A DNA stretch of 64,000 nt from a virus (lineage: Duplodnaviria > Heunggongvirae > Uroviricota > Caudoviricetes). Every line of letters starts with the position of its first letter. Position 1 is the stretch's first letter. The notes beneath the pieces are model-generated. The model was given only the letters and a program-made list of their open reading frames with translations. It made no database searches and had not been told where the DNA came from. This document shows, in pieces, positions 1 to 64,000 of this stretch. The position numbers were made by a program, and so were the translations under genes. The DNA is taken from IMG/VR virus record IMGVR_UViG_3300029998_000014; one strand, written 5' to 3'.

Positions 1-24
1 CAATTACGCCATTGGGGAATTTAG

Positions 25-113
25 TGGGGGCGGAGGGCTTCGAACCCCCATGTCTCACGACCGCTATGGTCTAACCTATATTTAGCTGCGGCTACCAATT
101 TCGCCACACCCCC
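25..113 (-). tRNA. Type II tRNA with long variable arm. The anticodon loop reads AUAUAGG, so the apparent anticodon is AUA (Tyr-like, unusual A34).
   Basis: Reverse complement folds as follows: acceptor GGGGGTG/CGCCCCC; 3-bp D stem with loop containing GG; anticodon stem CTAA/TTAG with 7-nt loop ATATAGG; 22-nt variable arm with CCAT/ATGG stem; T arm GGGGG-TTCGAAG-CCCTC; discriminator A. No encoded CCA. Confidence 0.6.
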
Positions 114-129
114 GATTGTTTTTTTTTTG

Positions 130-202
130 TGATCTGACTGGGATTTGAACCCAGAACCCCCGCCTTAAAAGGGCGATGCTCTACCAGTTGAGCTATCAGA
201 TC
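130..202 (-). tRNA. tRNA-Lys(TTT)
   Basis: Reverse complement GATCTGA TA GCTC AACTGGTA GAGC A TCGCC CTTTTAA GGCGG GGGTT CTGGG TTCAAAT CCCAG TCAGATC A. Perfect cloverleaf; anticodon TTT. Confidence 0.85.
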
Positions 203-356
203 TTGTAAATAACCACTTGGTTGTAGCGACACTACCAAGTGGTTTGTTGCCGAAACAACAACGGTCCTAAACCGTAAGTGGACTCTGTTGGTTTTGATCC
301 AACCTCTCATGCTCTTCAGGCATACGCTTTCACCAGATTAGCTTAGAGTCCTTAAA

Positions 357-1100
357 TTATATTTTATCCCATTCATCATCAGACAAACTATTTATTTCTT
401 TCTTTGAAGAAGGTATATTAAAATGTTTACACCATTTTCTAATAGCATTATCTGATCTATTGTATAATTTACCAATATTAATAAATGTTTCTGTGCGAAC
501 TAAAGTTTTTAAATATTCACGAGTTATACCAAGTTCATCGTAAAAATCATTAGCTATTCGTTTAGCAGAACAACTTAAACATAAACCACTTACAGAAGAA
601 CTTGTTATAGTATTACCACAAGAATTACAATATAATGCATCTATAACTTTATCTTTAACATTTTTACCTTTATAATTATCAGTAAAAGCATGACAGTTTG
701 GACATAATAATTTAAGATTATTTAATTCATTATTAGTTTTAATACCATCTATGTGGTGTGTTTCTAATGGAATAGGTTCTCCCATTCATTTAGTATTATC
801 ACAACATTCACATTTATGTTCTTTTAGATTATTTTTTAATAATTTATCTCTTAACTTACTTGTTTGTGTATATGCTGAATCTTTACAAAAGATTGTATCT
901 AAAGTGTACACATTCTTAGTTTCATTTGAAGAATTTCTTTTAAAATGAATTGTGCTAATTTGATGTTTTTTTATCTTAGTTTGAATTGTTTCATAATTAC
1001 CAGCAGTTAAAGGCAACCCATAATATCTACACACATCTGCAAAAGAATAACTTTCTTTTACAATTTTTTCTAAATTTTCTTTTGAATATTTGTTTTCCAT
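357..1100 (-). CDS. HNH endonuclease with CxxC zinc finger. Continuous only if the in-frame TGA at 786-788 is read as sense.
   Basis: Track ORFs 786..1136 and 357..785 lie in the same frame and are separated only by TGA (plus-strand tca at 786-788). The joined protein reads ...KCECCDNTK-W-MGEPIPLETHHIDGIKTNNELNNLKLLCPNCHA, i.e. the HNH motif spans the TGA. Likely start at MENKYSKE (1100). Confidence 0.7.
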
Positions 1101-1206
1101 AAATTGAACTATTATATTAATAGTACAAAGATACAAAAAATTTTCGAAAGTGCAAAATATATTTAGTTAAATATTGTTAATAGCAGAAAGAAACCACCGA
1201 AGTGGT

Positions 1207-1743
1207 TTATTCAAATAATCCTGAAGGTGTATTATGAAATTTATTATATAAAACATCTAATGTATAGGATTCATTATCTTTATTAACAAATAATAATTCT
1301 TCATCAATTATTGTCGGAGTGTAATTCTCCTTTAATACTTGTAAAAATGATTTAGTTCTTGTTACTGTGCCCCCAAATCTTGGATCATCTCCATAATTAA
1401 TGATATAAGTTCCTGACGATGGTGTCATACTAGCAAGAACATCATTATGAACATATTCTGATCTACCATCATGAGTTATTGTTTGACTAAATTCTTCAAG
1501 TAAACCTCTAATCATATCATTACTGATATTAAATTCATTAGCTCCTGATATTTTATATTTATCCTCATCATTCATAGATTGACTACTCATAGTAATTGTT
1601 TGAACTTTTCCAAACAATCTACGCATGCTTTCAACAACTCCAAAAAGAGGTCTTGGACCTCGTCCATTTAATGCATCTTCAAACCATTCTAAAGACTGCA
1701 TTAATACTTTATCACCTACTTTATATCGCTCTGTACCTCTCAT
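1207..1743 (-). CDS. Paralog family A, member 1 (unknown function)
   Basis: Shares N-terminal KVGDxVxxxSLxWF, mid FNISNDMIxG and C-terminal ENYTPxIDxxxLxFxxxDNxSYTL motifs with the next three ORFs. Confidence 0.6.
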   Translation of the reverse strand: MRGTERYKVGDKVLMQSLEWFEDALNGRGPRPLFGVVESMRRLFGKVQTITMSSQSMNDEDKYKISGANEFNISNDMIRGLLEEFSQTITHDGRSEYVHNDVLASMTPSSGTYIINYGDDPRFGGTVTRTKSFLQVLKENYTPTIIDEELLFVNKDNESYTLDVLYNKFHNTPSGLFE

Positions 1744-2098
1744 ATATTTCTTTTAAACTATATGCATCATTATTATCATTTATAAAATACAATCCACCTT
1801 CATCAATAAGTGGTGTATAATTCTTTTCTACATATTCAGGAAAAGATGAAGCTATTCCTTCAATCATATCATTACTAAAATTCCAATGACGTGGATCATC
1901 TACTAAGTGATATAAAGGTATATATGCATAACCTGCTTCATTATTTGAAATTACTTGTTCTTTACCAAAAAACTGACGCATATCATAAATTAATCCACCT
2001 TCAACAGCTACATGATTTTCCATCATTTCATCAAACCAAGCTAATGATTTTAGTCTAACAACATCACCAATTTTATACTTCTTTAAAGAACTCATCAA
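1721..2098 (-). CDS. Paralog family A, member 2
   Basis: KIGDVVRLKSLAWFDE ... WNFSNDMIEGI ... KNYTPLIDEGGLYFINDNNDAYSLKEIYERY. Overlaps neighbours by about 25 nt. Confidence 0.6.
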   Translation of the reverse strand: MMSSLKKYKIGDVVRLKSLAWFDEMMENHVAVEGGLIYDMRQFFGKEQVISNNEAGYAYIPLYHLVDDPRHWNFSNDMIEGIASSFPEYVEKNYTPLIDEGGLYFINDNNDAYSLKEIYERYRAI

Positions 2099-2531
2099 AT
2101 ATTTCTTTTAAAGTAAATGAATTATTATCTTTATCAGTAAATGTTAAAGTTTCACCATCAAGAAATGGAGTATAATTCTTTTCAAGATGTTCAGGAAATT
2201 TATTTGGAGTAATAACATCCCATGAATATTGATCAGGATCAATTATATTTTCATGTCTATGTATTAATTCAGAAGTTTTTATATTATCAATCATTTGATC
2301 AGTATACGTATATTCATTATCACTACCACCACTGCAACCTGCTAAAACATATCCACAATAATTTGTATCAACATGAGTAATAACTTGAATTGTTCCAAAA
2401 TAAGGTCTCATATCACTAGCTAAACCTAATCTAACATCACCTCTATCGTCATGTACATCAAACCAATCTTTAGATTTCAAATGTACACATTGTCCTACTT
2501 TATACTTAACTGTTGGTAGTGAATCTCTCAT
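2073..2531 (-). CDS. Paralog family A, member 3
   Basis: KVGQCVHLKSKDWFD ... YTDQMIDNI ... KNYTPFLDGETLTFTDKDNNSFTLKEIFDEF. Confidence 0.6.
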   Translation of the reverse strand: MRDSLPTVKYKVGQCVHLKSKDWFDVHDDRGDVRLGLASDMRPYFGTIQVITHVDTNYCGYVLAGCSGGSDNEYTYTDQMIDNIKTSELIHRHENIIDPDQYSWDVITPNKFPEHLEKNYTPFLDGETLTFTDKDNNSFTLKEIFDEFFKEV

Positions 2532-3075
2532 ATAACTGTGTTAAAGTAAATGAATTATTTTCATTATCTGTATAAGTTACAACTCCATCATAAGCAAATG
2601 GAACAAACTTCTCAACATATTGTATAAATGCTTTAACGTGAATTGAAAGACTGTTTGAAAAACCTAATAATCCACTAAAATCAGTAGTACCTCTCATTCT
2701 ACCTCTCAATTCTTGTAATGAAAGTTGTTCATACATACTTAAAGCACTTGACATACTTGAAGTACCTGAAGTTAAACTAGATCCTATGGTATTATACATA
2801 CTTACTAATCTATCATATCCATTAGTTGTAATTGGCATATCATAATACTTATCAACCATATCTATTGAGAAATACCAACCTTTAGAATCACTTTCAATAT
2901 TAAATAATTCAACACCTCTTAATTGAGATCCTCCAATTTTTACAGATTTTATAATATGTTCTTTACCAAAATATTGTTCCATATCATTAGTCAATATTGG
3001 CAAGAAATCTGCTTTTTTCTCATCATACCATTCTTTAGGTTTTAATAAAACCTTCATTCCTTGTTTTAAAATCAT
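2506..3075 (-). CDS. Paralog family A, member 4 (divergent, longer)
   Basis: GMKVLLKPKEWYDE ... FNIESD ... FVPFAYDGVVTYTDNENNSFTLTQLYERF. Confidence 0.55.
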   Translation of the reverse strand: MILKQGMKVLLKPKEWYDEKKADFLPILTNDMEQYFGKEHIIKSVKIGGSQLRGVELFNIESDSKGWYFSIDMVDKYYDMPITTNGYDRLVSMYNTIGSSLTSGTSSMSSALSMYEQLSLQELRGRMRGTTDFSGLLGFSNSLSIHVKAFIQYVEKFVPFAYDGVVTYTDNENNSFTLTQLYERFTTNS

Positions 3076-3128
3076 TTTCCATCTTCATTTAACTTGGGTA
3101 ATCATCCCAATTTTACCTAATTTATTTG

Positions 3129-3200
3129 TAAGAGCAGAGAGAATTGAACTCCCGACATCTTCCATGTAAGGGAAGCGTTCCACCACTGAACTATGCTCTC
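3129..3200 (-). tRNA. tRNA-Val(TAC)
   Basis: Reverse complement GAGAGCA TA GTTC AGTGGTG GAAC G CTTCC CTTACAT GGAAG ATGTC GGGAG TTCAATT CTCTC TGCTCTT A. G1-U72 wobble; anticodon TAC. Confidence 0.8.
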
Positions 3201-3258
3201 GGTTGTATTGTAGACAGTACTATCTTGTAGAACCAATACTAATTTTATATCTACTTTG

Positions 3259-3332
3259 TGTTCACAACAGGACTTGAACCTGTGACCCCCAACTTATCAG
3301 GCTGGTGCTCTAACCAACTGAGCTACGCAAAC
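3259..3332 (-). tRNA. tRNA-Ile(GAT)
   Basis: Reverse complement GTTTGCG TA GCTC AGTTGGTTA GAGC A CCAGC CTGATAA GTTGG GGGTC ACAGG TTCAAGT CCTGT TGTGAAC A. Anticodon GAT. Confidence 0.8.
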
Positions 3333-3424
3333 AGTTAAACAGTAACTATTCTTAGACTTTCGACATCCTTAATAGCTTTCCAATGATAACTAATTGCTGT
3401 TTACCAATTAGCTTCTTCGAAGAG

Positions 3425-3498
3425 TGGAATCTGTGGGTTTCGAACCCACCACCTATTGCTTGCAAAGCAATCGCTCTAGCCAAATGAGCTAAGACCCC
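3425..3498 (-). tRNA. tRNA-Ala(TGC)
   Basis: Reverse complement GGGGTCT TA GCTC ATTTGGCTA GAGC G ATTGC TTTGCAA GCAAT AGGTG GTGGG TTCGAAA CCCAC AGATTCC A. G3-U70 Ala identity pair present; anticodon TGC. Confidence 0.85.
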
Positions 3499-3663
3499 GA
3501 TTTAAAGTTTTTTGTGCCACGGTGATTGTATGCCAAACTGGTAAAAACTTAATAATACCCATGCGCCAAATACGATGCGCGAGACAAGTATGCATAAACT
3601 ATCAAACTTTCGTTATTAAGTTCCTAGGCCTTCTCAATCTACGTTCAGTTGTTCCTACTGGTT

Positions 3664-3879
3664 TTATTTAATTATTTCAAGTTCTTCTGGAGAATAACCA
3701 TATCTTAATTTAGAAGGTAACCATCTAACATTCCATTCATCACCTTCACCATCAGGATATACTAAATCTTCAACTATACCTATACACTTTCCAAATTCAT
3801 CAACATGATCTTTACAATCATTTGCAATTAATCCTCTTTTAAAGGATTTAGTCATTTTAACTATATCTCCTGATTTCAT
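3664..3879 (-). CDS. Hypothetical small protein (KOW-like GDIVKM and WNVRW motifs)
   Basis: The track ORF 3664..3954 overlaps tRNA-Cys. The internal ATG at 3877-3879 (MKSGDIVKMTKS...) avoids the overlap. Confidence 0.45.
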   Translation of the reverse strand: MKSGDIVKMTKSFKRGLIANDCKDHVDEFGKCIGIVEDLVYPDGEGDEWNVRWLPSKLRYGYSPEELEIIK

Positions 3880-3895
3880 AATTTTATTTATTTTG

Positions 3896-3968
3896 AGCCC
3901 ATACCAAGATTCGAACTTGGGCGTGCGATTTTTGCAGAATCGAATGTTAACCACTTCACCATACGGGC
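3896..3968 (-). tRNA. tRNA-Cys(GCA)
   Basis: Reverse complement GCCCGTA TG GTG AAGTGGTTAA CAT T CGATT CTGCAAA AATCG CACGC CCAAG TTCGAAT CTTGG TATGGGC T. Anticodon GCA; discriminator U73 as expected for Cys. Confidence 0.8.
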
Positions 3969-4448
3969 TTATCTATTATTAATAATATTACTAATGGTTC
4001 CTTTACTACTAATATTATATTTTTCCATAATTTCTTTATAAGTATGCCCTAAATTTCGGTATGCTTTAATTTCTAAAACTAATTCATCAGAATATTTTTT
4101 ATTAGCATTAGATGCAATTCTAATTCTTTCTTCTTTAGGTTTATCCATCATATTATCACTATATGATCCAATTTCAATATTATCCCAAGAATTATTTAAT
4201 CCGTTACCATCTAAATGTCTAACTACTATATCTTCGTTAAAAATAATTTCTCCAAATTTTTGATATGCTTGTAATCTATGTACTTTAACTGGAATATGTT
4301 TTTCATTTAATCTAATATTAAATTTTTTATAATTTTTATTATAAATAGTTCCTGTTAAAATTTTTTCTTTAGGATTTAAAATATCACCATTTATAGTTAT
4401 TTTATATCCTTTTTCAATTGCTAATAATTCATTTTTACTTCTTTCCAT
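3969..4448 (-). CDS. HNH_3/AP2-type homing endonuclease
   Basis: Motif VHRLQAYQKFGEIIFNEDIVVRHLDGNGLNNSWDNIEIGSYSDNMMD. The track ORF N-terminus overlaps a tRNA-like gene, so the start is placed at MERSKNELL (ATG 4446-4448). The gene sits between tRNA genes. Confidence 0.75.
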   Translation of the reverse strand: MERSKNELLAIEKGYKITINGDILNPKEKILTGTIYNKNYKKFNIRLNEKHIPVKVHRLQAYQKFGEIIFNEDIVVRHLDGNGLNNSWDNIEIGSYSDNMMDKPKEERIRIASNANKKYSDELVLEIKAYRNLGHTYKEIMEKYNISSKGTISNIINNR

Positions 4449-4452
4449 ATTG

Positions 4453-4529
4453 TACCTACTCCTGGGATTGAACCAGGCTGTCACCAAATAACCTTTCAAC
4501 AAGATATAAGCTTGAGGGTATAAGTAGGC
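4453..4529 (-). tRNA. Atypical tRNA-like gene; anticodon unresolved (candidate hairpin CAAG-CTTATAT-CTTG gives UAU). No normal D arm.
   Basis: Good acceptor (GCCTACT/AGTAGGT) and T arm (CCTGG-TTCAATC-CCAGG, 77 nt), but the internal region does not fold into a canonical D arm plus anticodon arm. Confidence 0.4.
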
Positions 4530-4559
4530 ATAAAAAATCTCTTTATTCACTTTAAGCAG

Positions 4560-4920
4560 AGTGGAATAATTATATTGACTTAGGTCATAACGAAGGCTTT
4601 TCTGCGAACACTAACCATATCATAACTACATTTACCAAAACATTCAACCACTGCTATGGTTTATAACCTACGTACTCAACTTTCGTCCTTACCCCTTATT
4701 GGGTTGGGTGTCTCCCCCTGGTTACCGTTTTGCTTCAATTAAAGAGATTTTATTTGTTCAACTTAGAGTAGTCACGGCTACCTCTGATCTCTAAGTCTAA
4801 TACTAACAGTGGCAAAATGTAGCTCGACCCTAGTTAGTTTTGTTAATTGGTATGGGCAATAACTTTATAAGTTAAGACTACAACCCCATCTTTGATGGTT
4901 TATTCTATCGTAGCTAATAA
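4560..4920. ncRNA. ORF-free, GC-richer block; candidate structured RNA of unknown class
   Basis: No ORF of 60 aa or more on either strand across ~360 nt in a densely coded genome. Local GC is clearly above the genome average, and tRNA genes flank the block. Confidence 0.25.
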
Positions 4921-4936
4921 TAAATAAACCTAGTTG

Positions 4937-5009
4937 TACTCCAAGCTGGACTTGAACCAGCGACCCTCGGTTTAGAAAACCGATGCTCTATCCACTGAGC
5001 TACTGGAGC
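4937..5009 (-). tRNA. tRNA-Arg(TCT)
   Basis: Reverse complement GCTCCAG TA GCTC AGTGGATA GAGC A TCGGT TTTCTAA ACCGA GGGTC GCTGG TTCAAGT CCAGC TTGGAGT A. Anticodon TCT. Confidence 0.8.
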
Positions 5010-5014
5010 ATTTT

Positions 5015-5500
5015 AAAAATGAGTAACGGGAGGGACAATTACACGCATGTTATCCACGGGACTACACCTACATCTTTTCGTTAGGGATATCTGGACTTAA
5101 TTCCTCATTCTAAGTCAGCATTGGGTTCCCCTCTTACCTGACTCACCGACCATTCTCGGATGTTACTCATTTAATTTTTAAAAATATTGATGTGCTATTA
5201 CGCCAAAGGGATTTCAGTCCTTACCAGTTACGGGGTGACCTCCAACTTACCTTACCACATTAAATTCCAACTTGAATTGGTTTATCAACGTAGTCTCGTC
5301 CCACTCTTTAGATGATTGCTGCTTCCAAGCCAACATTTCAATATTTTATATTTTAAAAAAGATATACTAATTGCGATTGTATATTATAGAAACATCATCG
5401 ACGATAATAAATTACCATTCTAGATATAACATTCACCAATACTTTAAATACGGAGGAATTCCAGAGTCACTTCCCTCATATACAATTAGAGCCCTCTGGA
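5015..5500. ncRNA. ORF-free, GC-richer block; candidate structured RNA of unknown class
   Basis: About 480 nt with no ORF on either strand, flanked by tRNA-Arg and a small membrane-protein gene; locally GC-rich segments are present. Confidence 0.25.
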
Positions 5501-5501
5501 C

Positions 5502-5717
5502 CTAGACTGTTTCTTCTTTTAATTTTTTATTCCATTTTAAAAATCCTCTAATATTTAAAACTGTAAATGCTAAATACATTATAACTATTGAAATCATATT
5601 CCAGAATAATATTATTCCAAGAATACTTCCAATTGCTCCAAGTATGAAGCCAATTATTCTCTTATTACTTATCAAATAATAAGCGTATAAGTTTAAAATC
5701 ATTAAAATCCAATCCAT
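5502..5717 (-). CDS. Small integral membrane protein (2 TM helices)
   Basis: 71 aa, hydrophobic; sequence ...IIGFILGAIGSILGIILFWNMISIVIMYLAF.... Confidence 0.5.
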   Translation of the reverse strand: MDWILMILNLYAYYLISNKRIIGFILGAIGSILGIILFWNMISIVIMYLAFTVLNIRGFLKWNKKLKEETV

Positions 5718-5920
5718 TATCTATTTGTTTAAGTTTTAAAAAGGGTTGGGTATATAGTAGAACTTTAATCAACTTATACGTTTATGAATTACACATAATT
5801 GCTATCTACCACCCTTTATTTTAACATCCCTCTCTGCCGCAATCAAGTTTCGGCTGTCTTGTGCTTTGTTTGAACCATTATCAATTGCCGATTTATGGTC
5901 ACAGAGTTGAGGATATTTAG

Positions 5921-5993
5921 TTGCGAAGGAGGGAATTGAACCCCCGACCTCAAGGTTATGAGCCTTGCGAGCTACCACTGCTACCACTTCGCG
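5921..5993 (-). tRNA. tRNA-Met(CAT), possibly initiator-type (C1xA72 mismatch)
   Basis: Reverse complement CGCGAAG TG G TAGC AGTGGTA GCTC G CAAGG CTCATAA CCTTG AGGTC GGGGG TTCAATT CCCTC CTTCGCA A. Anticodon CAT; 1-72 unpaired as in bacterial tRNA-fMet. Confidence 0.7.
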
Positions 5994-6003
5994 ATATATT
6001 TTG

Positions 6004-6076
6004 TATAGATGGTGAGACTCGAACTCACGACCCCTTGCTCCCAAAGCAAGAACGCTACCAACTGCGCCACATCTAT
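6004..6076 (-). tRNA. tRNA-Pro(TGG)
   Basis: Reverse complement ATAGATG TG GCGC AGTTGGTA GCGT T CTTGC TTTGGGA GCAAG GGGTC GTGAG TTCGAGT CTCAC CATCTAT A. Anticodon TGG. Confidence 0.8.
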
Positions 6077-6079
6077 ATT

Positions 6080-6298
6080 TTAATTATTGAATATTTCACA
6101 AATTAATTCTTCAGAAATCCATTCTTCAATTACATCTTTACTATCATTTTCAGTAATAAAAAATATTTCATGATCTTCTATAGCATCTTTTAAATATCTT
6201 GAAACTTTATTAAGATCTGATATGCTTGAAGACTTAAAAATAAGTCTTGGTGTTTCACGATTACTTATTCTAAGTAAATAATATTTTTTTTCTATCAT
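6080..6298 (-). CDS. Hypothetical protein
   Basis: 72-aa ORF co-directional with its block; no recognisable motif. Confidence 0.4.
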   Translation of the reverse strand: MIEKKYYLLRISNRETPRLIFKSSSISDLNKVSRYLKDAIEDHEIFFITENDSKDVIEEWISEELICEIFNN

Positions 6299-6318
6299 AA
6301 TTAATTTATCAATATTTT

Positions 6319-6391
6319 GTATTCGGACGGGGAATCGAACCCCGCTTGCTGGGATGAAAACCCAGATTACTAGCCGCTATAAGACCCGAAC
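6319..6391 (-). tRNA. tRNA-Glu(TTC)
   Basis: Reverse complement GTTCGGG TC TTA TAGCGGCTAG TAA T CTGGG TTTTCAT CCCAG CAAG CGGGG TTCGATT CCCCG TCCGAAT A. Glu-type D arm; anticodon TTC. Confidence 0.75.
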
Positions 6392-14408: not shown

Positions 14409-14815
<407 letters not shown>

Positions 14816-23985: not shown

Positions 23986-24065
23986 TTCTTTTTATCATTT
24001 TGTGTTTAACCTACACGAATTGTGTAACGCACTAAGCTTAATAACTTTATACTCCCTTAGTGGAG

Positions 24066-24107
24066 TTAAAACGAGGATGCTATAGAATCGTGATCCCATA
24101 GCATCCC
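24066..24107 (-). terminator. Candidate rho-independent terminator
   Basis: Minus-sense GGATGCTAT-(14 nt loop)-ATAGCATCC followed by TCGTTTTAAC. Confidence 0.45.
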
Positions 24108-28937: not shown

Positions 28938-29023
28938 TATGGATAAAAGGATTTGAACCTCCGACCTCCGGCTAATGTTTTTGTCTTGCTGCCGACGCTC
29001 TAACCAGGCTGAGCTATATCCAA
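28938..29023 (-). tRNA. tRNA-like gene with a normal D arm, T arm and acceptor but an 18-nt anticodon loop (decoding unresolved)
   Basis: Reverse complement TTGGATA TA GCTC AGCCTGGTTA GAGC G TCGGC [AGCAAGACAAAAACATTA] GCCGG AGGTC GGAGG TTCAAAT CCTTT TATCCAT A. Confidence 0.4.
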
Positions 29024-36598: not shown

Positions 36599-37009
36599 TT
36601 ATTTATATCGAGGTAAATCTTGTTTAATTTTACTATATTCATTTCCTCCAATCATTAATCCATTTTTGTAAGCATGAATTTTATTTTCAGAATCAGTACA
36701 CCATTCAAGATTTACTAATGAATTATTTAATTTATTTCCATCTATATGATTTACTTGTAAATTTTCAAAGATTGGTCTAAATGTTAACATTACTATTCTA
36801 TGAACATGTAATGTTTTTATTCCATTTCTATTTTCAGCAGTAAATCTTAAATATCCAAATTTATTAGGAGATAATTTTAATATTTTCCCTTTTAATTTTC
36901 TTCCAATTTTAGATATTCTATTTAAACTTCTTATTCTTCCTAAATTAGAAACTTGATATATTTCTTCATATTCAGGAATGTCTTTTCAGATTTCTTCTAT
37001 TTCTTGCAT
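36599..37009 (-). CDS. HNH_3/NUMOD4 homing endonuclease with in-frame TGA at codon 8
   Basis: Minus-sense ATG CAA GAA ATA GAA GAA ATC TGA AAA GAC ATT CCT GAA TAT ... gives MQEIEEI-W-KDIPEYEEIYQVSNLGRIRSL...HVHRIVMLTFRP...NHIDGNKLNNSLVNLEWCTDSEN. Stops with TAA. Confidence 0.65.
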
Positions 37010-43197: not shown

Positions 43198-43280
43198 AAT
43201 CTTATTTGTTTTTGAGTTTGATATGTTTAAACATATTTCGTCCAGTCTCATCAGAAACTATTTTATACTCTACTGGTTGA
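43198..43280 (-). promoter_or_regulatory. Conserved upstream element, copy B
   Basis: GTTTTTGAGTTTG...TTTCGTCCAGTCTCATCAGAAACTATTTTATACTCT. Confidence 0.45.
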
Positions 43281-44738
43281 GTTAATAAAAAAGAGAGTAC
43301 ACACTATATGTCCAAATGCGACGATGTGTACTCCCTTAGTGTTTGTTATCAAAATTAATATGATAACCATTGTTTACTTCGCGGTACATCACCGATAAAA
43401 TCGGTGAATCTAACCGGGAAGCATTCTTTCGTAATAAAGAGCTTCACCCTTTTGCTCCCATAGCCAGTTTCAGGACGATATTACGTTGGCTTGTTTTTGA
43501 CACCAGCAATTAGCACGGCATCGGTTTTAGTATACCTATCTTTTATTAATTTGTCTTCAAGGATTGACAGAATGGATGCTATTTGTACATATAGCCGTTA
43601 TACCTTACACTCGGAAGTTCCACACTTTCATCGGAGGATTGCGCACAGGTTTTCATTATACTTATTTGCAGTTAGTATTATACTGTTTAAAGGCATCAAA
43701 CCACCATACTGAATCTCTTCTTGATTAGTTATTCAGATATGCTTCTTATATAAGAGATTATATTATTTATAACGTTATTATATAGAGAATATACATATCC
43801 AACCGTTTATCTGATGAAAGTTGCTTGATGCTAAGAGTTTAAAGTATATTTACAATAATTGCAGCTAATAAAAATCCAGCTGCGGCAGCATATAAATGCG
43901 ACATAATATGATTTTCTTTATCAAAACATATTAATCCCATAAATATATCAAATGCTAAACATAGACTGAGTATAATTACCATTAGCTTATGTATTTAAAC
44001 ATTAATATTCCACAATCAATAAGTAAAGAAAGCATTACATATCCCATTCGTGATTCTTCTTGCCATTTGATAATATTGAATTGTAGTCCAATAAATGAAC
44101 CTAACAAGTAAAAGATAATCCATGGTGCAATGTATAATAGAGTTTTTTCAGTTTTAGTCATGTTTTTTGATTTTACATTCTATTGATATAAACATTGCAC
44201 ACAATTCTACAAATAAATAGAAGATTAAGAACGGTGATAAACAAATTACTATTGCTTGAGTTTTAGTTAACATTATAGATCTTCATTTTTAAATTTGGTG
44301 ATGAAATTATCTAACCATTTAAATCGGATATTAAAGCGAACTCTTTTTATGAGTTTATCGCATAACATACAGATAAAAACAATTAATAATAATCCAATCA
44401 TAAATATCACTATTAATGTATTTATTCCAGGAATAAACCACATAAAATCACATTCAGCTTCATATTTACTAAATATATCTAAATACTTCGGAGATGCAAT
44501 TCTATATAAGACACTACACAGAACAATGGATAATAAATATCCAACAATTAATAAGAATAGTACCATGATTATTGTAATGGAATGTGAAACTTAATACACA
44601 ACATAAGTACAATCCCACACATTATAAATCCACACGCAAAACCTCCAAGTAATACACCTGTAAGATCTTTTTCAATATAATATTTTCTTGTTAGAAATAT
44701 ATCGAAACATAATAAAAGTAATAATAATATTATCATGA

Positions 44739-45280: not shown

Positions 45281-45281
45281 T

Positions 45282-45503
45282 TTAAACTGATTTTTCTAAA
45301 TGAATAGCAATGTTAACAATTAATAATAGTATTATAATACCATATAATATACATATCTTTGGTAATTTAAAGTATGTAAATACATCAACTATAAGAGCTA
45401 CTAAAATTGCAACCATTACCACTATTAAAATGATAACGATTGTAATTAATATTATGTTTAGCATTTGATTAATTTTTATGAATATTAGATGCAATATGAT
45501 CAA
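45282..45503 (-). CDS. Small membrane protein
   Basis: 73 aa, two TM helices. Confidence 0.4.
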   Translation of the reverse strand: MIILHLIFIKINQMLNIILITIVIILIVVMVAILVALIVDVFTYFKLPKICILYGIIILLLIVNIAIHLEKSV

Positions 45504-45687
45504 ATAAAAATATTGCCATTATTATTAAACCTATTGGTCAAATTAATGATGTTGTAAAAATGCTCCGATATTTTGACCGTTATTTAAATACATACTACCA
45601 GGAAAATTATATTCTAATACAAGTAATAATATTGGACATAATATTAATCCAATAATATAAATAATGATTAATGTTATCATAATAAAT

Positions 45688-45780
45688 AAGTTTTTGAGTT
45701 TGACGGGAGTGATGAGCTCCCCGTTTCGTCCTAGTCTCTTCAGAAACTGATGTTATACTCTCCTAGGCTGAGTCATATTG
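45688..45780 (-). promoter_or_regulatory. Conserved upstream element, copy C
   Basis: TTTTTGAGTTTG...TTTCGTCCTAGTCTCTTCAGAAACTGATGTTATACTCTCC. Confidence 0.45.
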
Positions 45781-46047
45781 TTCTTACATCACTGTAATAC
45801 TAAATATAGTTGGGATAGAAATAATGATAATTAGAAAGAAATACAGACTGATGAGGAATGTATATTGTAAAAAAGACTCATGATAGGCTCCGGACTATTA
45901 TGCACCGTATGCAACACCGTCGGACGACGGTTAATCAAATCATAAGTCTTTTATGAAAGTAAACATAATTGAACCCGGGATATCTGTACCGTACTAAAAA
46001 CCATCAGATCTAATGATTTTTTCAATTATGTTTATGAGAGAGTATTG

Positions 46048-49872: not shown

Positions 49873-50244
49873 ATGGAAGTAATACAACACTTCGTTCGTA
49901 ATGACGACCATGATGAATTATACATTATGGAAATTGAAGGGAAAGCTTATGCTAGGATGTATTGATTCCATGATGATCCAAAATCAGTTTACTTAAACTC
50001 TTTAAGTGTTGAGAATAACGAAAGAGAACAAGGACTTGGAACTAAAATGCAGGAACTAAGAGAGAAAATAGGAATAGAACTCGGAGCTACACAATCCTTT
50101 TTATGAGTTAAACGGGATAGTTGAATGTATGAATGATATACCCGAAGAGGTTATAACGATTTCTCAGATTACACAGATGATGATAGTATGATATGAATGA
50201 TTAAAATGTTAAATGATAACAATACTAAATACAAAGAAGACTAA
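49873..50244 (+). CDS. GNAT-family N-acetyltransferase containing 5 in-frame TGA codons (read as Trp) and no TGG
   Basis: ATG 49873, TAA 50242. The translation with TGA=W reads MEVIQHF...YIMEIEGKAYARMYWFHDDPKSVYLNSLSVENNEREQGLGTKMQELREKIGIELGATQSFLWVKRDSWMYEWYTRRGY...SMIWMIKML. The Q/RxxGxG/A GNAT motif (QGLGTKM) is present. This gene is absent from the standard-code ORF track. Confidence 0.7.
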
Positions 50245-52429: not shown

Positions 52430-52858
52430 ATGGAAGAAATACTAAAGAAATTTAATTACAAACCCACAGAAGAAAATACTTGGGTTAAAGGTGAATGGAC
52501 TGTTAGATTTGATGATGAACTCGTCGAAGTTTTTAACGATCCTAATAAAAGTGCAGGCGAATATTATAGTTCACCAATTGCAACAGTAGATTTAGAATTA
52601 ATATTAATGGAAGTTGATAGGAAAAATCGCTGACCAATCGTTACTATGGTTACTGATATGATTACCGATGTAAATGCAGAATCAGAAAATGCAACTGGAA
52701 ATACTTATATAATGTTTACTCCTCATAGAGTATGGTTAAAAGATTGGTTAAGGTTATGGGGTCAAGAAGAAAATGGAAGTTATTCTATTACAGGTAACAA
52801 TATCTTTGTTGTTGATTCAACACTAAGTAAAGTAATAGATATTACAAAACTAATATAA
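52430..52858 (+). CDS. Hypothetical protein, continuous through TGA at 52631-52633
   Basis: Track ORFs 52430..52633 and 52646..52858 are in the same frame, separated by TGA plus 4 sense codons (...EVDRKNR-W-PIVTMVTDMI...). Confidence 0.45.
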
Positions 52859-52887
52859 AAGTTAGAGGTTCTTTAAAACCTCATCAT

Positions 52888-52960
52888 ACCTTTGTAGTGT
52901 AATGGTTAGCACACAAATCTTCAAAATTTGTAAGTGTGAGTTCGAGTCTTACCAAGGGTG
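52888..52960 (+). tRNA. Opal-suppressor tRNA, anticodon UCA, tRNA-Trp-derived (tRNA-Trp(UCA))
   Basis: ACCTTTG TA GTGT AATGGTTA GCAC A CAAAT CTTCAAA ATTTG TAAGT GTGAG TTCGAGT CTTAC CAAGGGT G. The anticodon loop is C-U-UCA-A-A. A1-U72, G73, the D loop and the T loop UUCGAGU match the E. coli tRNA-Trp architecture. Confidence 0.9.
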
Positions 52961-52978
52961 CAAAATGATAGAATAAAT

Positions 52979-53545
52979 ATGAATAGAACAAGTAAAGAAG
53001 AATTAGAAAAACTAATATTAATAGATAAGTTATCATATGCTGAAATAGCAAGAACATTTGGTGTATCTGATGTTACTATTAGAACCTGGGCAATTAAACT
53101 AGGGATAAATATTCCTAGCCGAAAAAAAATATTGGAAAATAAGATATGTTTAAATTGTAATAATGAATTTAAACCATCTGGAACTACAAATAAATATTGT
53201 AGTCAACAATGTTCAAATGAACATAAAATAATTTTAAATTATGAAAAATATAAATTAGATAATTCCATACTTTATGGACAATCTAATATGTCAAATTATA
53301 AAAAACATTTTTTAAAAGAACAAGATTATAAATGTACAATTTGTGGAAATCCGAATACTTGGAATGATAAAGAATTGGTATTTGTTTTAGATCACATTGA
53401 TGGTAATGCTGATAATAATGAACGTAGCAATTTAAGGTGTATATGTCCTAATTGCGATAGTCAACTTGATACATTTAAATCTAAAAATAAAAATAGTGCT
53501 AGAGCAAAATACAGACAAACTTTAAAGGTGGAGGAATGTGTATAA
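52979..53545 (+). CDS. HNH homing endonuclease with N-terminal HTH
   Basis: LDHIDGNADNNERSNLRCICPNCDSQ (HNH) and LSYAEIARTFGVSDVTIRTWAIKLGI (HTH). The track ORF starts at GTG 52958 inside the tRNA; the ATG at 52979 is preferred. Confidence 0.75.
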   Translation: MNRTSKEELEKLILIDKLSYAEIARTFGVSDVTIRTWAIKLGINIPSRKKILENKICLNCNNEFKPSGTTNKYCSQQCSNEHKIILNYEKYKLDNSILYGQSNMSNYKKHFLKEQDYKCTICGNPNTWNDKELVFVLDHIDGNADNNERSNLRCICPNCDSQLDTFKSKNKNSARAKYRQTLKVEECV

Positions 53546-53724
53546 TGACCGAACTAGAACAAAAAATAATAGAATTAAGAAAAGAAGGATTAAGTTATAG
53601 AAATATTCAAATAAAATTAGGTAATCCTTCTAAAAAATTTATAAGAGAAACACTTTTACAATACACTCCGGATTTAGTTGGAGATATAGTAAAAAATTAT
53701 AATAAACTAGAACCTAAATGGTAA
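53536..53724 (+). CDS. Small HTH protein (sigma-70 region-4/LuxR-like)
   Basis: ELRKEGLSYRNIQIKLGNPSKKFIRETL. Confidence 0.45.
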   Translation: MCIMTELEQKIIELRKEGLSYRNIQIKLGNPSKKFIRETLLQYTPDLVGDIVKNYNKLEPKW

Positions 53725-53800
53725 CTAAGAAATAGTGTAAGGTATATGACAACAGGGATTCTATATCCATTAAATGATAATCTCATATCAACCAAGCACC

Positions 53801-56173: not shown

Positions 56174-56884
56174 ATGGGAAAAGGCACACGAGAAAAGCGT
56201 ACTGAGAAACGCGAGAAAAACAGATTACCCGAAAAACAATCTAACTTAGTAAATGATTTCAAACCAAAGAATGAGAAACAACAAGAGTTTATTAACCTTA
56301 TAAATGATAGAGAGATTATCATTGCTACAGGTCCTGCTGGAACAGGTAAGACATATGTAACATTAGCAACAGCTTTATCATTATTAGGTTCAATCTATAA
56401 AAAGGTTATTCTTGTAAAGTCAGTAACTACTATTCCCGGAGAAGAAATAGGATTCCTTAAAGGTGGAATGGAACAGAAAATGGAACCATTTATAATGTCT
56501 TATATGTGAAATATTGATAAGATCTGCGGAGATAAATCTGCACAGAACTTACTTGATAAAAAAATAATTGAAGTATTACCACTAGCTTTTATTAGAGGTT
56601 TATCAATTGATAATGCTATTGTAATAATCGATGAAGCACAAAACATAGATAATCATACTTTTAAAACAATGATGACTAGAATTGGAGAAAACTCAAAATA
56701 CATTCTTCTTGGAGATAGTGAACAAATAGATAGACGTAAGAAAAGCGAATCGTGTTTAGCGAAAGTTATTGAGATATTTACTGATTCAGATATTATTGGA
56801 TCAATAGAATTTAAAGATGAGGATTGTGTGAGAAATCCAATCATTCCTATAATTTTATCTAAACTAAGAGAGAACGGAATCTAA
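56174..56884 (+). CDS. phoH: PhoH-like ATPase with one in-frame TGA (56507-56509)
   Basis: ATGPAGTGKTYVTLATA (Walker A) ... LAFIRGLSIDNAIVIIDEAQN (PhoH signature). The frame is continuous only if TGA is sense (...FIMSYM-W-NIDKICGDKS...). Start at MGKGTREKR. Confidence 0.85.
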
Positions 56885-57102: not shown

Positions 57103-57561
57103 ATGACAGAATTACTAGTAGGCGGTGCAGTAACAATTGCAGTATCAGCATTTACTTTCCTTTTAGGAAAGGGTAAAAATCAAGCTGAAACAGAAAAGCT
57201 TGAAAAAGAAACAGAGAAAATAGAAATCGAGACTAAGTTCGATGAGGTTAAATTACTTAAAGAAATTAATCAAAACTTATCAGATCAATACGAAAAAAAT
57301 GATAAGAGATGGACTGAACGTTACGCCGAAATGGAAAAAAAGTGAATGACTATTGTAAGCCAATATGAAGTTTATAAAACTCAAACTGAAAAACGTATTT
57401 GTGAACTTGAAGAAATTGTAAAGAATCAAGATAGAGATAAATGTTTAGGTGATTTATGTCCTACTAAAATAGAATATAATAAGATCCTAGCAAAAAGATT
57501 AGAGAGAAAAAGAAACTCCGCTATGAAAAAATTTAATCAAAGCGGTACAAAACAGGAATAA
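57103..57561 (+). CDS. N-terminal TM + coiled-coil protein, continuous through TGA at 57343-57345
   Basis: Track ORFs 57103..57345 and 57346..57561 are in the same frame (...EMEKK-W-MTIVSQYEV...). TM helix LLVGGAVTIAVSAFTFLLG. Confidence 0.45.
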
Positions 57562-58863: not shown

Positions 58864-59178
58864 TTGACTAACGTTAGATTATATGTTACTGGATTGGAAG
58901 AAACTCGAGAGTTATATAACATCGAAATACAACAATCTAAAATAAAGGATTCTATAATTATTGAAAAAAATAAAAAATTAGATAACTTTAAAAATATAGT
59001 AATAGAAAAAGATTCTATTATAGGTTATACTGTTACAGAGTTTAATAAAGCAGACAAATGGGGAAAATCTCAAGAAGTCTTAAAAACTAAATATAAAAAA
59101 CAAGCTGCAAGAACTCCATTATTTATGGGTATTAGTAGTGCAATAGGATTTATATTATGTCTATTATCAATAAAGTAG
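58864..59178 (+). CDS. Hypothetical protein with C-terminal TM anchor
   Basis: 104 aa; C-terminus TPLFMGISSAIGFILCLLSIK. Confidence 0.45.
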   Translation: MTNVRLYVTGLEETRELYNIEIQQSKIKDSIIIEKNKKLDNFKNIVIEKDSIIGYTVTEFNKADKWGKSQEVLKTKYKKQAARTPLFMGISSAIGFILCLLSIK

Positions 59179-59429
59179 CACAAGGGTTCTTCAATGAACT
59201 AATGAATAAAGAAGCAGAAACACACACCAAACGAATGATTCATTGTAAACAATGTAAATTGTTATATAATGATAGTTTGTTTGGAGAAACATGTAATTCT
59301 GAATTATATGTAAATCCGGAAACAAATGAAGTTTCTACAACAGATAAACCAGGATTTAAGAATGGATGCGGATGTATCCTTAGATCCAAGACACGAGTAC
59401 CAGATGCACACTGCCCTTTAGGCAAATGA
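59157..59429 (+). CDS. Cys-rich zinc-finger-like small protein
   Basis: CKQCK ... CNSE ... CGC ... HCP. Confidence 0.4.
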   Translation: MSIINKVAQGFFNELMNKEAETHTKRMIHCKQCKLLYNDSLFGETCNSELYVNPETNEVSTTDKPGFKNGCGCILRSKTRVPDAHCPLGK

Positions 59430-59445
59430 TAACAATGAAAATGTA

Positions 59446-60894
59446 ATGATAATGAAAAATGTTTTATTTAATGGAGATGCAAAAGACATCTTAATTGAAG
59501 GAGTGAATTTAATAGGCGATGCTGTGTCAACAACATTCGGACCTAATGGAAAAAATGTTATAATCAAAGGACTCTCAGGAGTGTATATAACAAAGGATGG
59601 AGCAACCGTTGCAAAATATGTAAACGATGATGATCCATTTATTAGTACAGGTATTGAACTTATAAAAGGTATTGCAACTAAAACAGCAACTGATGTTGGA
59701 GATGGTACAACCACTGCAACTATTCTTGCTCAAACTTTAGTTAATACTTTAAAAGATAAGACTGAAAATCCAATTGCTATAAGTAGAGAGTTAGATAAAG
59801 AACTCAAACAAGTTATAGAATATTTGGAAAAGAATAAAAGAACAATCACAAGTGTAGAAGACTTAATTAAAGTTGCCACAGTATCTACAAATAATGATAT
59901 TGAACTTGGTAAACTTGTAGCTGAAACTTATTTTAAAGTTACAAAAGATGGAGTAGTAACTATAGAAGATTCACAAGATACACATAATTCAGTTGTGTTT
60001 TCACAAGGAGTTAAAATTGAATCAGGATATAACTCACCATACTTTGTTAATACAACTAAGAGTACATGTGAACTAGAAAATGTATTAATTGCAGTTTTTA
60101 GAATACCTTTAACTGAGATTAAAGATATTGACGAAGTATGTAGTAGAGCTATGAGAGAAAAGAAAGCACTTCTTATTATTGCTCCAAAAATGGAATCCAC
60201 AATACTAAGAACTCTAGTACATAATAATAATACAGGAAATCTAAAGTCTTGTTTTATTAGTTCACCCGGACATGGTATCTATAGAGAAACTTTACTTGAT
60301 GATATCGAATGTATTGCTTCTACTTCAGTTTGTGAAAAAATTATAGTATCAAAAGATACTACATATCTAATAGGATGTGAATCTAACCAATCGGTTATTG
60401 ATGCTAAAATATTAGAAGTAAAAAATACACTTAGTTGTAGTACAACTGAGTTTGAAATGACGTTTCAAAGAAAGAGATTAGCTAATTATATTGGTGGTAT
60501 AGCTACTATATTTGTTGGTGGATATTCTCAAGTTGAAATACAAGAAAAGAAAGATAGATTAGAAGATGCTATTTGTGCGGTTAGAGCTGCTATGACAGAT
60601 GGTATATTACCTGGTGGAGGTTTCTCATTACTTAGAGCTGCTAAACTTTTAGACTTAAAATATTTAAGTAAAGTATTGGTAATGCCTAATTTAATACTAT
60701 CTGAGAATAAAGCAGATGGTATAGATATTTTCAATTTCTGGGAAGGTAAAGACTATAAGACTAGACAAATTGGAGACATGTATGAAATGGGAATCGTAGA
60801 TCCTTTCCTAGTAACAAAGATAGCTTTAGAAAATGCAGTATCAGTAGCATCACTGATCTTAACTAATGGATGCACAATATTAAATATAAATTAA
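59446..60894 (+). CDS. groL: GroEL-like chaperonin (Cpn60)
   Basis: TTFGPNGKNVIIKG...ITKDGATVAK...ATKTATDVGDGTTTATILAQTL matches the GroEL equatorial ATP-binding motifs; 482 aa. Confidence 0.85.
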   Translation: MIMKNVLFNGDAKDILIEGVNLIGDAVSTTFGPNGKNVIIKGLSGVYITKDGATVAKYVNDDDPFISTGIELIKGIATKTATDVGDGTTTATILAQTLVNTLKDKTENPIAISRELDKELKQVIEYLEKNKRTITSVEDLIKVATVSTNNDIELGKLVAETYFKVTKDGVVTIEDSQDTHNSVVFSQGVKIESGYNSPYFVNTTKSTCELENVLIAVFRIPLTEIKDIDEVCSRAMREKKALLIIAPKMESTILRTLVHNNNTGNLKSCFISSPGHGIYRETLLDDIECIASTSVCEKIIVSKDTTYLIGCESNQSVIDAKILEVKNTLSCSTTEFEMTFQRKRLANYIGGIATIFVGGYSQVEIQEKKDRLEDAICAVRAAMTDGILPGGGFSLLRAAKLLDLKYLSKVLVMPNLILSENKADGIDIFNFWEGKDYKTRQIGDMYEMGIVDPFLVTKIALENAVSVASLILTNGCTILNIN

Positions 60895-61279: not shown

Positions 61280-61555
61280 ATGATTACAATTTGTAATAAT
61301 GCAAAAAGAAACACTATGATTAATGAACAACGAAACAACGATAAGCAGTTTTTCCTACCTGGAGATGTAGTAAGTCTTAGACAAGATGTACCAAATAAAC
61401 CCACTATGATTGTGGTAAAAAAAGTTACTAAAACTATTAGAACTTCTGATGTAAAGAATGATTTCTTCCAAGGAATTCAATGTATGTGATTCACAACAAC
61501 TGGGGAGATTGTAAAAGATACTTTTAATACTAAAGATCTTTTGAAAATACAATAA
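61280..61555 (+). CDS. Hypothetical protein, continuous through TGA at 61487-61489
   Basis: ...GIQCM-W-FTTTGEIVKDTFNTKDLLKIQ, then TAA. Confidence 0.35.
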
Positions 61556-62151
61556 TGAGATCTGGAATATATTTAATTAGAAATATAAATAACAATAAAT
61601 GTTATATTGGAAGTTCTAATAATTTAGAGTATAGAAAATGTATGCATTTTTCTAAATTAAAACATAATAAACATATAAATCAACATCTTCAAAATTCATA
61701 TAATAAATATGGAAAAGAATCTTTTATATTTACTATTATTGAAGAATGTGAATGTATGAAAGAAATTCTATTAGATAGAGAACAATATTATATTAATACA
61801 ATGAATCCTGAATATAATATTTTAAAAATTGCAGGAAGTACATTAGGTTTTAATCATTCTATTGAAACTAAACTTAAAATTAGTAATTCTACAATAGGTA
61901 TTAAAAAATCTAAAGAACATTGTGAAAATATAAAAAATTCTCAAAAAGGTAAAACTTTAACAGATGAACATAAACAAAAATTATCAGAATCTGCAAAAAA
62001 TAGAACTAAACAAGGACATACTACTAAAATAAATATAGATGGAATTAACTATGATTCTTTAAAAGAAGCATCAGAGTTATTAGGAATAAAATATAACACT
62101 CTTCAAAGAAGATTAGTTAATCCTAATTTTCTAAATTACATTAAATTATAA
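61555..62151 (+). CDS. GIY-YIG homing endonuclease with NUMOD3 repeats
   Basis: GIYLIRNINNNKCYIGSS...R...H (GIY-YIG); ETKLKISNSTIG / HKQKLSESAKN NUMOD3-like repeats. Confidence 0.8.
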   Translation: MRSGIYLIRNINNNKCYIGSSNNLEYRKCMHFSKLKHNKHINQHLQNSYNKYGKESFIFTIIEECECMKEILLDREQYYINTMNPEYNILKIAGSTLGFNHSIETKLKISNSTIGIKKSKEHCENIKNSQKGKTLTDEHKQKLSESAKNRTKQGHTTKINIDGINYDSLKEASELLGIKYNTLQRRLVNPNFLNYIKL

Positions 62152-63355: not shown

Positions 63356-63360
63356 AAATT

Positions 63361-63936: not shown

Positions 63937-63937
63937 T

Positions 63938-64000
63938 TATGAAAGGATTTATATATAAATTAATATCACCAAGTGGTAAATGTTATGTTGGACAAACAGT
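63938..64000 (+). CDS. GIY-YIG endonuclease (5' fragment; runs off the window)
   Basis: MKGFIYKLISPSGKCYVGQT. Confidence 0.5.

Follow-up and report, generated by a model that had tools for sequence, protein, structure and literature searches.

The 64,000-nucleotide stretch of the IMG/VR virus record IMGVR_UViG_3300029998_000014 (Caudoviricetes; the whole stretch is called the window below) comes from a phage in which TGA very probably means tryptophan (Trp), as in genetic code 4, and is decoded by the phage's own suppressor tRNA(UCA). TGA is used as a Trp codon in the genes of the plus-strand block, whereas the minus-strand block of ~47 kb is best read as written in the standard code, except for two free-standing HNH homing endonuclease genes that each contain a single in-frame TGA. 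This high confidence applies to the explanation as a whole, that is, to code 4, the phage-encoded tRNA, the split between the modules, and the endonuclease TGAs as Trp codons. Two-phase genetic coding is cleanly displayed by this uncultivated phage, which does not belong to the gut clades in which it was described, and its selfish endonuclease genes are the exceptions in a standard-code block, a situation reported once before, for an intron-encoded enzyme.

The meaning of TGA was read from genes with orthologues in three relatives (loci L001, L002, and L067), which were reached via the class III ribonucleotide reductase gene (nrdD) and have a common gene order of PhoH, exonuclease, g59157, g61280, g62168, and g63361. 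The following non-mobile genes carry TGA at Trp positions.

56174–56884, plus strand: PhoH-like ATPase, with a TGA-Trp at 56507–56509 (TGA in L001, TGG in L002 and L067); the Pfam PhoH match (2.4e-57) extends across the TGA
59157–59432, plus strand: g59157, a small Cys-rich protein whose last codon is a TGA-Trp at 59427–59429, followed by TAA
61280–61555, plus strand: g61280, a small conserved protein with a TGA-Trp at 61487–61489 and its true stop at 61553–61555
62168–63355, plus strand: g62168, a Lys-rich protein of 395 amino acids (aa) with two TGA-Trp codons, at 62267–62269 (W34; TGG in L001 and L002, TGA in L067) and at 62345–62347 (W60; TGA in L001 and L067, TGG in L002)
63361–63936, plus strand: g63361, a conserved 191-aa protein directly upstream of the terminase, with a TGA-Trp at 63544–63546 (W62; TGG in L001, L002, and L067, within 'LFFDW(E/N)SPY')

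At the conserved Trp sites of these five genes, TGA and TGG were exchanged between the window and its relatives. Every TGA with orthologue evidence lay opposite Trp or TGG, once opposite Phe, and never opposite Cys. Because TGA sits at conserved Trp sites and swaps with TGG in the orthologues, we read it as Trp. At the end of g59157, which reads 'GK-TGA-TAA', the orthologue in L067 has TGG-TAA, and those in L001 and L002 have TGA-TAA. In g61280, the 21 codons past the TGA are conserved in all three relatives, and the site itself is TGG in L002 and L067. Translation with code 4 gave full-length genes for PhoH, in which the predicted peptide spanning the TGA is MEPFIMSYMWNIDK, and for the GIY-YIG endonuclease, the large terminase (TerL), and the portal protein encoded just past the end of the window. 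These last genes were read in a contig, L189, that is 100% identical to the window at 62412–64000 (the last 1589 nt) and adds 10.9 kb, including TerL (phrog_6681, 1.8e-70) and then the portal gene.

Three further in-frame TGAs on the plus strand (49963–49965, 52631–52633, and 57343–57345) each connect two parts of an ORF, with good coding potential on either side, and one of them lies in a protein of 152 aa that has a transmembrane segment at its N-terminus. These candidate sense codons were not confirmed, as orthologues were missing or diverged at these positions. The public gene calls for four contigs of the same phage (L192–L195, corresponding to 52–58 kb of the window) disagreed between code 11 and code 4: the code-11-like calls split PhoH (111 + 71 aa) and g57103 (80 + 71 aa), whereas the code-4-like calls gave proteins of 248 and 152 aa. 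Annotation with the standard code splits the TGA-bearing genes of this phage.

From position 1 to ~47 kb the genes of the window are on the minus strand, and from ~47.6 kb onward they are on the plus strand; the usage of TGA follows this division. In the minus-strand block, the 69 genes that do not encode endonucleases have 180 TGG and lack internal TGA, and seven genes of the block use TGA as their stop.

7618–33345, minus strand: span of the seven genes ending at TGA, with stops starting at 7618, 11639, 12903, 13637, 19584, 22515, and 33343

Beyond these stops, only 0–11 codons separate each TGA from the next TAA or TAG. The 180 TGG codons, the lack of internal TGA, and the seven TGA stops are the reason for reading this block as standard code. 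TGA has thus not been retired as a terminator, which fits mixed or two-phase coding rather than a uniform code 4. The late genes of L189 have the opposite usage, with 43 TGA and 10 TGG overall when the GIY-YIG gene is included, so that TGA makes up ~80% of the Trp codons.

L189, large terminase subunit: 10 TGA, 4 TGG
L189, portal: 2 TGA, 1 TGG
L189, four downstream ORFs: 4, 6, 9, and 6 TGA; 0, 1, 1, and 3 TGG
L189, GIY-YIG#2: 4 TGA, 0 TGG

The extent of recoding varies among the relatives: L001 and L067 use TGA even in nrdD or widely in TerL, and L002 uses it sparingly. The +4 base did not separate sense from stop TGAs, being T in 5/7 versus 17/48 codons, with no significant difference (P = 0.10).

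Six free-standing endonuclease genes (three HNH, one HNH_3, and two GIY-YIG) are located beside tRNA genes, upstream of nrdD, and around the terminase genes. They are listed here with the suppressor tRNA and a small ORF that accompanies it.

357–1100, minus strand: HNH#1, a free-standing HNH homing endonuclease of 247 aa, with one in-frame TGA at 786–788 read as Trp
3969–4448, minus strand: HNH_3 endonuclease of 159 aa, without TGA (Pfam HNH_3, 4.6e-8, above the gathering score)
36599–37009, minus strand: HNH#2, an ORF for a NUMOD4 + HNH_3 endonuclease of 136 aa, with one in-frame TGA at 36986–36988
52888–52961, plus strand: suppressor tRNA(UCA), 74 nt, class I, Trp-like (ARAGORN, Rfam)
52979–53545, plus strand: HNH#3, a homologue of HNH#1, 188 aa, without TGA, its ATG 18 nt after the tRNA(UCA)
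53536–53724, plus strand: small helix-turn-helix (HTH)-like ORF of 62 aa, which travels with the tRNA(UCA) and HNH#3
61555–62151, plus strand: GIY-YIG#1, 198 aa, with no Trp codons at all (Pfam GIY-YIG, 6.3e-14)
63939–64000, plus strand: first part of GIY-YIG#2, which runs past the end of the window, beginning 'MKGFIYKLISPSGKCYVGQT'

The original prediction, made from the sequence of the window, had described most of this arrangement correctly: the single in-frame TGA in each of two minus-strand HNH genes, an HNH gene immediately after the suppressor tRNA, and GIY-YIG genes at 61555–62151 and at the end of the window, the latter of which is complete in L189. Its placement of both TGAs inside or near the HNH motif holds for HNH#1, where the TGA is 11 codons ahead of the HH of the motif, but not for HNH#2, where it falls within the N-terminal NUMOD4 motif and outside the HNH motif. 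Likewise, the HNH_3 gene, which had been placed between tRNA-Cys and a tRNA-like gene, does adjoin tRNA-Cys (3895–3968), but nothing tRNA-like was found on its other side before tRNA-Arg(UCU) at 4936–5009, the next RNA gene.

Within the minus-strand block, no gene other than HNH#1 and HNH#2 has a sense TGA. The endonucleases of this block have 2 TGA versus 4–5 TGG, and its other genes 0 versus 180 (Fisher P = 0.0012); the hypergeometric probability that both sense TGAs of the block fall within the 6 endonuclease Trp codons among 186 is 8.7e-4.

In HNH#1, the sequence around the TGA reads 'KCECCDNTK[TGA]MGEPIPLETHHIDG', and the predicted code-4 peptide spanning the site, with Trp at the TGA, is CCDNTKWMGEPIPLETHHIDGIK; another predicted peptide spanning an HNH TGA is NTKWMGEPIPLE. 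The TGA lies opposite Trp in HNH#3 and in annotated HNH endonucleases from Erwinia phage Cronus and Klebsiella phage KP13-7, and opposite TGG in 15 IMG/VR homologues, giving Trp or TGG in more than 20 homologues overall. With Trp at the TGA, the Pfam HNH and HNH_3 matches of HNH#1 were weak and below the gathering score, as were those of HNH#3; the HNH beta-beta-alpha metal motif (CxxC ... HH ... N ... CxxC-H) is nonetheless present, with C97, C100, H116, N128, C133, and C136 invariant in the alignment. The gene has no other stop or frameshift and keeps all domains of its 247–274-aa homologues, and its dN/dS relative to the closest of them is 0.27–0.34. TGG is the codon at the site in these closest homologues (P0001, P0002, and P0005 in loci L196–L198; 79%, 75%, and 46% identity), which makes the TGA a synonymous change of recent, lineage-specific origin rather than a mark of the element itself.

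We also considered whether TGA at this Trp is a conserved trait of the HNH family and rejected this possibility, as TGG is the codon both in the closest homologues and in the family at large. TGA was found at this Trp only in two other phage groups, L164/L165 and L205–L208. L164/L165:6001–6786 encodes an HNH protein of the same family with a TGA at the Trp just ahead of the HNH motif ('CEKCNNTE*MEEPIPLELHHIDG'), and L205–L208 (~3001–3600) contain HNH#3-type homologues with an equivalent TGA ('ICGMKPE*NGKELVFVLDHIDG'). The genes beside these TGA-bearing HNH genes use TGG, and no tRNA(UCA) was present within the loci examined.

The 3′ end of HNH#1 is 6 nt from tRNA-Phe(GAA) (278–351), and its closest homologue, in L196, likewise adjoins tRNA-Phe. 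Erwinia phage Cronus, Klebsiella phage KP13-7, and many IMG/VR phages have further homologues within their tRNA arrays, and the HNH_3 protein is 59% identical to the product of an ORF in the tRNA array of L164. The HNH endonucleases of the tRNA region of phage T5 are also free-standing homing endonucleases in a phage tRNA cluster.

HNH#2 starts with 'MQEIEEI[TGA]KDIPEYEEIYQVSNLGRI', for which the predicted code-4 peptide across the TGA is 'MQEIEEIWK'. With Trp at the TGA, its Pfam matches were above the gathering score (NUMOD4, 2.2e-17; HNH_3, 6.9e-11), and the TGA lies opposite an invariant NUMOD4 Trp that is encoded by TGG in all homologues.

The tRNA(UCA) folds into a 7/5 cloverleaf with a 4-nt variable loop, and it has A1–U72, discriminator G73, and the anticodon loop CUUCAAA. 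Such an acceptor end and anticodon loop mark bacterial tRNA-Trp identity. In the alignment, the phage tRNA-Trp(CCA) genes in related loci had the same A1, U72, and G73 and the same loop. Rfam assigned the tRNA to the general family RF00005 (62.9 bits) and not to tRNA-Sec (RF01852), and it does not have the tRNA-Sec geometry (8/5 or 9/4 acceptor/T-arm, 6-bp D stem, and long variable arm); the 'tRNA-SeC' label given by ARAGORN mirrors the anticodon alone. At the syntenic position in the closest relatives (L001:3564–3656 and L002:8540–8634), we found tRNA(UCA) genes of 93–95 nt (93 nt in L001) with a long variable arm, A1–U72, and G73; the TGAs of these phages align with Trp or Phe.

These observations suggest an explanation in which the use of TGA for Trp in the plus-strand block rises toward the packaging and structural genes, where it is the main Trp codon, and the in-frame TGAs of the endonucleases are ordinary code-4 Trp codons and not lesions. 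Without the suppressor, the ribosome would halt after 104 codons in HNH#1 and after 7 codons in HNH#2, and full-length nuclease would be made from these genes only once the tRNA(UCA) was active. Either this delay was selected, or non-essential selfish genes may tolerate a TGG-to-TGA drift that their essential neighbors cannot. Relaxed selection on non-essential genes would be a simpler alternative to the published explanation by delay. We infer the expression timing, the competition with RF2, the nuclease activity, and the homing.

The original prediction had proposed that endonucleases with TGA can function only in recoding phages, which would tie the selfish elements to the suppressor tRNA. 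The first part stands insofar as full-length HNH#1 and HNH#2 require a UGA-decoding tRNA, and the phage encodes one. The second part stands for the linkage of HNH#3 to the 74-nt tRNA, but TGA is also used in at least five non-mobile genes and is missing from three of the six endonucleases (HNH_3, HNH#3, and GIY-YIG#1), and the TGA use of GIY-YIG#2 matches that of its late-gene neighbors. Because non-mobile and late genes use TGA and half of the endonucleases do not, the dependence of the endonucleases on the suppressor is a general consequence of their presence in a code-4 phage and not a special tie.

Several points weigh against the explanation offered here, beginning with the three endonucleases that lack TGA. 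The endonuclease excess in the minus-strand block is real, yet it rests on two codons. The labels 'early' and 'late' were drawn from gene content alone, and both the amino acid inserted at UGA and the timing of expression there are inferred. HNH#2 lacks the C-terminal HTH (DNA-binding) region of its 170–200-aa homologues, is ~40–60 aa shorter, and has 407 nt of non-coding DNA downstream; this copy may be decaying and, whatever the code, non-functional. In one assembly of the same phage (L225:3144–3886, JGI 3300030047), HNH#1 has A6 in place of A7 at codon 45 (window ~966), which shifts the frame, and this 1-nt homopolymer deletion is either an assembly error or a decaying allele. The truncation of HNH#2 and the frameshifted variant of HNH#1 would suit a scenario in which both HNH ORFs are pseudogenes, nonsense-mutated in the usual decay of homing endonucleases after fixation, as would the failure to find a variant with TGG or without the homing endonuclease gene (HEG) among the strain contigs of this phage that were read, all of which carry HNH#1, HNH#2, and HNH_3, with the TGAs. 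We nevertheless regard this scenario as improbable. Both stops are TGG-to-TGA changes at a conserved Trp, for which random nonsense mutation gives 2–7% per gene and 0.0005–0.005 jointly, and TGA is demonstrably a Trp codon elsewhere in this genome, in PhoH among other genes. The conserved Trp, the otherwise intact ORF with all its domains, and the purifying selection led us to reject decay for HNH#1, and it remains a minor possibility for HNH#2. A still smaller chance is given to HNH#1 as a split gene, in which translation would stop at the UGA and restart at the adjacent AUG, to give two cooperating fragments, an N-terminal one that binds DNA and a C-terminal nuclease. An ATG does directly follow the TGA, both here and in the L164/L165 homologue that also has a TGA, but 'W-M' belongs to a conserved family sequence (EWMG), in which the ATG is simply a conserved Met. 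Moreover, the two CxxC pairs of the HNH zinc site flank the TGA, the first on its upstream and the second on its downstream side, and a split would sever the catalytic domain; the closest homologues of HNH#1 are also uninterrupted, and all of this makes a split gene highly improbable.

Two other scenarios concern the code itself. If the phage merely followed a code-4 host (Mycoplasma or Spiroplasma-like), in which tRNA-Trp(UCA) is the normal decoder, the low GC content of ~30% and the use of TGA for Trp would be expected, and the TGAs would have no regulatory or selfish meaning. However, the TGG-only Trp codons of the 69 minus-strand genes and the seven TGA stops would be unexpected if TGA were a free Trp codon, the phage has its own tRNA(UCA), and its relatives differ widely in the extent of recoding. 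Adaptation to such a host is therefore very improbable and was rejected on the grounds that the minus-strand block follows the standard code. The ARAGORN label would instead point to selenocysteine at TGA, as might the long-arm tRNA(UCA) of L002, which has an 8-bp acceptor stem and a 4-nt D loop and scored 47.2 bits against the Rfam tRNA-Sec threshold of 47. The tRNA of the window, however, is a 74-nt class I molecule that has an acceptor stem of 7 bp and lacks a long variable arm, the TGAs align as described above and never with Cys, and insertion dependent on selenocysteine insertion sequence (SECIS) elements is implausible for 43 TGAs in ~11 kb of late genes. The tRNA structure and the Trp alignment led us to reject this reading, to which we attach practically no probability, and TGA as Trp, decoded by the phage's own tRNA(UCA), remains the preferred one.

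The suppressor tRNA, HNH#3, and the 62-aa ORF appear to form a unit. The three closest homologues of HNH#3 (in L199, L200, and L201; 59–61% identity) are located 15–43 nt after a 74-nt tRNA(UCA), and in all three loci a homologue of the 62-aa ORF follows HNH#3; these phages are likewise recoded. The unit is kept in every relative with the 74-nt tRNA type (the window, L199/L200, and L201). The homology between the window and L001 is interrupted at 52579–53777, matching the unit. L001 has no HNH#3, with a gap of 145 nt between its tRNA and nrdD; L002 has an unrelated GIY-YIG gene at the corresponding site upstream of nrdD; and the 62-aa ORF is missing from both.

In T4, the endonuclease SegB recognizes the T-psi-C motif of tRNA genes and drives the inheritance of itself and the surrounding tRNA genes (PMC2330249). 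By analogy, homing of HNH#3 into a co-infecting relative without the HEG would carry the tRNA(UCA) along. One can go further and propose that the suppressor tRNA and the endonucleases are mutually dependent, in that homing of HNH#3 would co-convert the tRNA(UCA) and so spread the code change, and the TGAs would confine the endonucleases to suppressor phages and gate their expression until after the switch; we hold this proposal to be tentative and rather unlikely. The literature searched contained no paper linking homing endonucleases to the spread of suppressor tRNAs. With a homing endonuclease gene and the suppressor tRNA side by side, one can envisage a route, open to testing, for the passage of code-change machinery from phage to phage.

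A comparison of insertion sites, which the original prediction had proposed as a check, could be made for half of the endonucleases. GIY-YIG#1 is missing from L001, L002, and L067, where g61280 and g62168 are adjacent. GIY-YIG#2, which is complete in L189 (1528–2361; 277 aa, 4 TGA, 0 TGG; Pfam GIY-YIG and NUMOD1), is located between g63361 and the large terminase gene, and it is missing from the same three relatives, in which TerL directly follows the g63361 orthologue. Because they are absent at the same junctions in relatives, HNH#3, GIY-YIG#1, and GIY-YIG#2 are interpreted as mobile insertions. For the minus-strand block, searches with an 885-aa protein and with NAMPT gave no syntenic relatives or distant loci only, and a search with a 718-aa protein gave 80 loci, none with conserved neighbors. 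For HNH#1, HNH#2, and HNH_3, these searches thus yielded no syntenic relatives.

The combination of features seen here resembles that of the Agate and Jade code-4 phages. Borges et al. (bioRxiv 10.1101/2021.08.26.457843) described TGA-to-Trp phages with suppressor tRNAs, low GC content, and differently coded close relatives, in which recoding is concentrated in structural and lysis genes. In the Agate phages, a homing endonuclease within an early gene prefers TGA over TGG (P = 1.3e-3), which was read as delayed production (bioRxiv 10.1101/2021.08.26.457843). The present phage shares with these phages TGA at Trp sites, a tRNA(UCA), low GC content, recoded packaging and structural genes alongside modules in the standard code, and relatives that vary in recoding, and it shares with the Agate phages a homing endonuclease with TGA in an otherwise standard-code region. 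Both the pattern and its explanation have therefore already been published for the Agate phages, and the differences are of degree. The lineage of the present phage is a different and unclassified one, to which INPHARED offered no close match; its TGA endonucleases are encoded by HNH genes that stand free, within or close to a tRNA array, and not by an intron; its suppressor tRNA adjoins a homing endonuclease gene; and upstream of the packaging module, TGA also occurs in some genes of replication and nucleotide metabolism (PhoH) and in others. The study of the Agate and Jade phages reportedly appeared later in Nat Microbiol (2022).

As with T4 SegB (PMC2330249), the endonuclease genes are wedged among tRNA genes; however, SegB is a GIY-YIG enzyme of a standard-code phage, homing in the present phage is putative, and one of the neighboring tRNAs here is a stop-codon suppressor. 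The intergenic HEGs beside conserved genes (nrdD and terminase), with their presence/absence polymorphism among relatives, resemble the free-standing HEGs, such as mobE, that flank genes of nucleotide metabolism and packaging in T4-like phages (PMC2790892); in L002, the corresponding site holds an endonuclease of a different family. Unlike the HEGs of T4-like phages, the genes here belong to a different lineage, all Trp codons of GIY-YIG#2 are TGA (4/4), and activity is predicted.

The same phage was found in many metagenome assemblies, with JGI 3300030047, JGI 3300037257, and ENA ERZ27248704 among the samples, and two contigs of ~175 kb from separate samples (Ga0302286_10000016 and k141_285602) suggest its genome size. 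Among the INPHARED phage records, no close relative was found, only short HNH or tRNA matches. Apart from the genes discussed above, the plus-strand block contains a replication-initiator-like gene, an exonuclease gene, and a GroEL gene, and the auxiliary genes of the minus-strand block, which include NAD salvage genes, encode NAMPT, an NMNAT-NUDIX fusion, AAA ATPases, a glutathionylspermidine synthase, an SPFH protein, and an OmpA-domain protein. The GroEL-like gene (59446–60894, plus strand; 482 aa; phrog_5725, 4.6e-107) is also present in L067 but missing from L001 and L002, where its neighbors are ~230 nt apart.

24–6391, minus-strand block: tRNA array (ARAGORN/Rfam)

At one end of this array, ARAGORN called a 'tRNA-Tyr(AUA)' at 24–113 (minus strand; 90 nt, 59% GC) with an atypical anticodon loop, which was not among the Rfam matches at the gathering score and may be either a class II tRNA that was mis-called or some tRNA-like element. 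A further tRNA at 28938–29023 (minus strand; Rfam tRNA, 47.5 bits) was missed by default ARAGORN and was identified, with introns allowed, as tRNA-Leu(CAA) with an 11-nt insertion in the anticodon loop. The phage also encodes a tmRNA (14409–14815, minus strand; Rfam, 107 bits) with the unusual tag GNKTISFARTAFMAAA, which could be relevant to ribosome rescue in a phage that alters a stop codon's meaning. Two RAGATH-1 hammerhead ribozymes (43215–43283 and 45697–45774, minus strand) and one Pistol ribozyme (24005–24066, minus strand) were all above the Rfam gathering thresholds, and the hammerheads were located in the gene-poor stretches 43252–44738 and 45281–46047. Between HNH#1 and the tRNA genes that follow it, at 1207–3075 on the minus strand, four paralogous small genes (125–189 aa) stand in a row; they had no family match and no homologues among the loci compared, and they have the N-terminal 'K.GD.V.L.S..W(F/Y)' and C-terminal 'NYTP' motifs in common.

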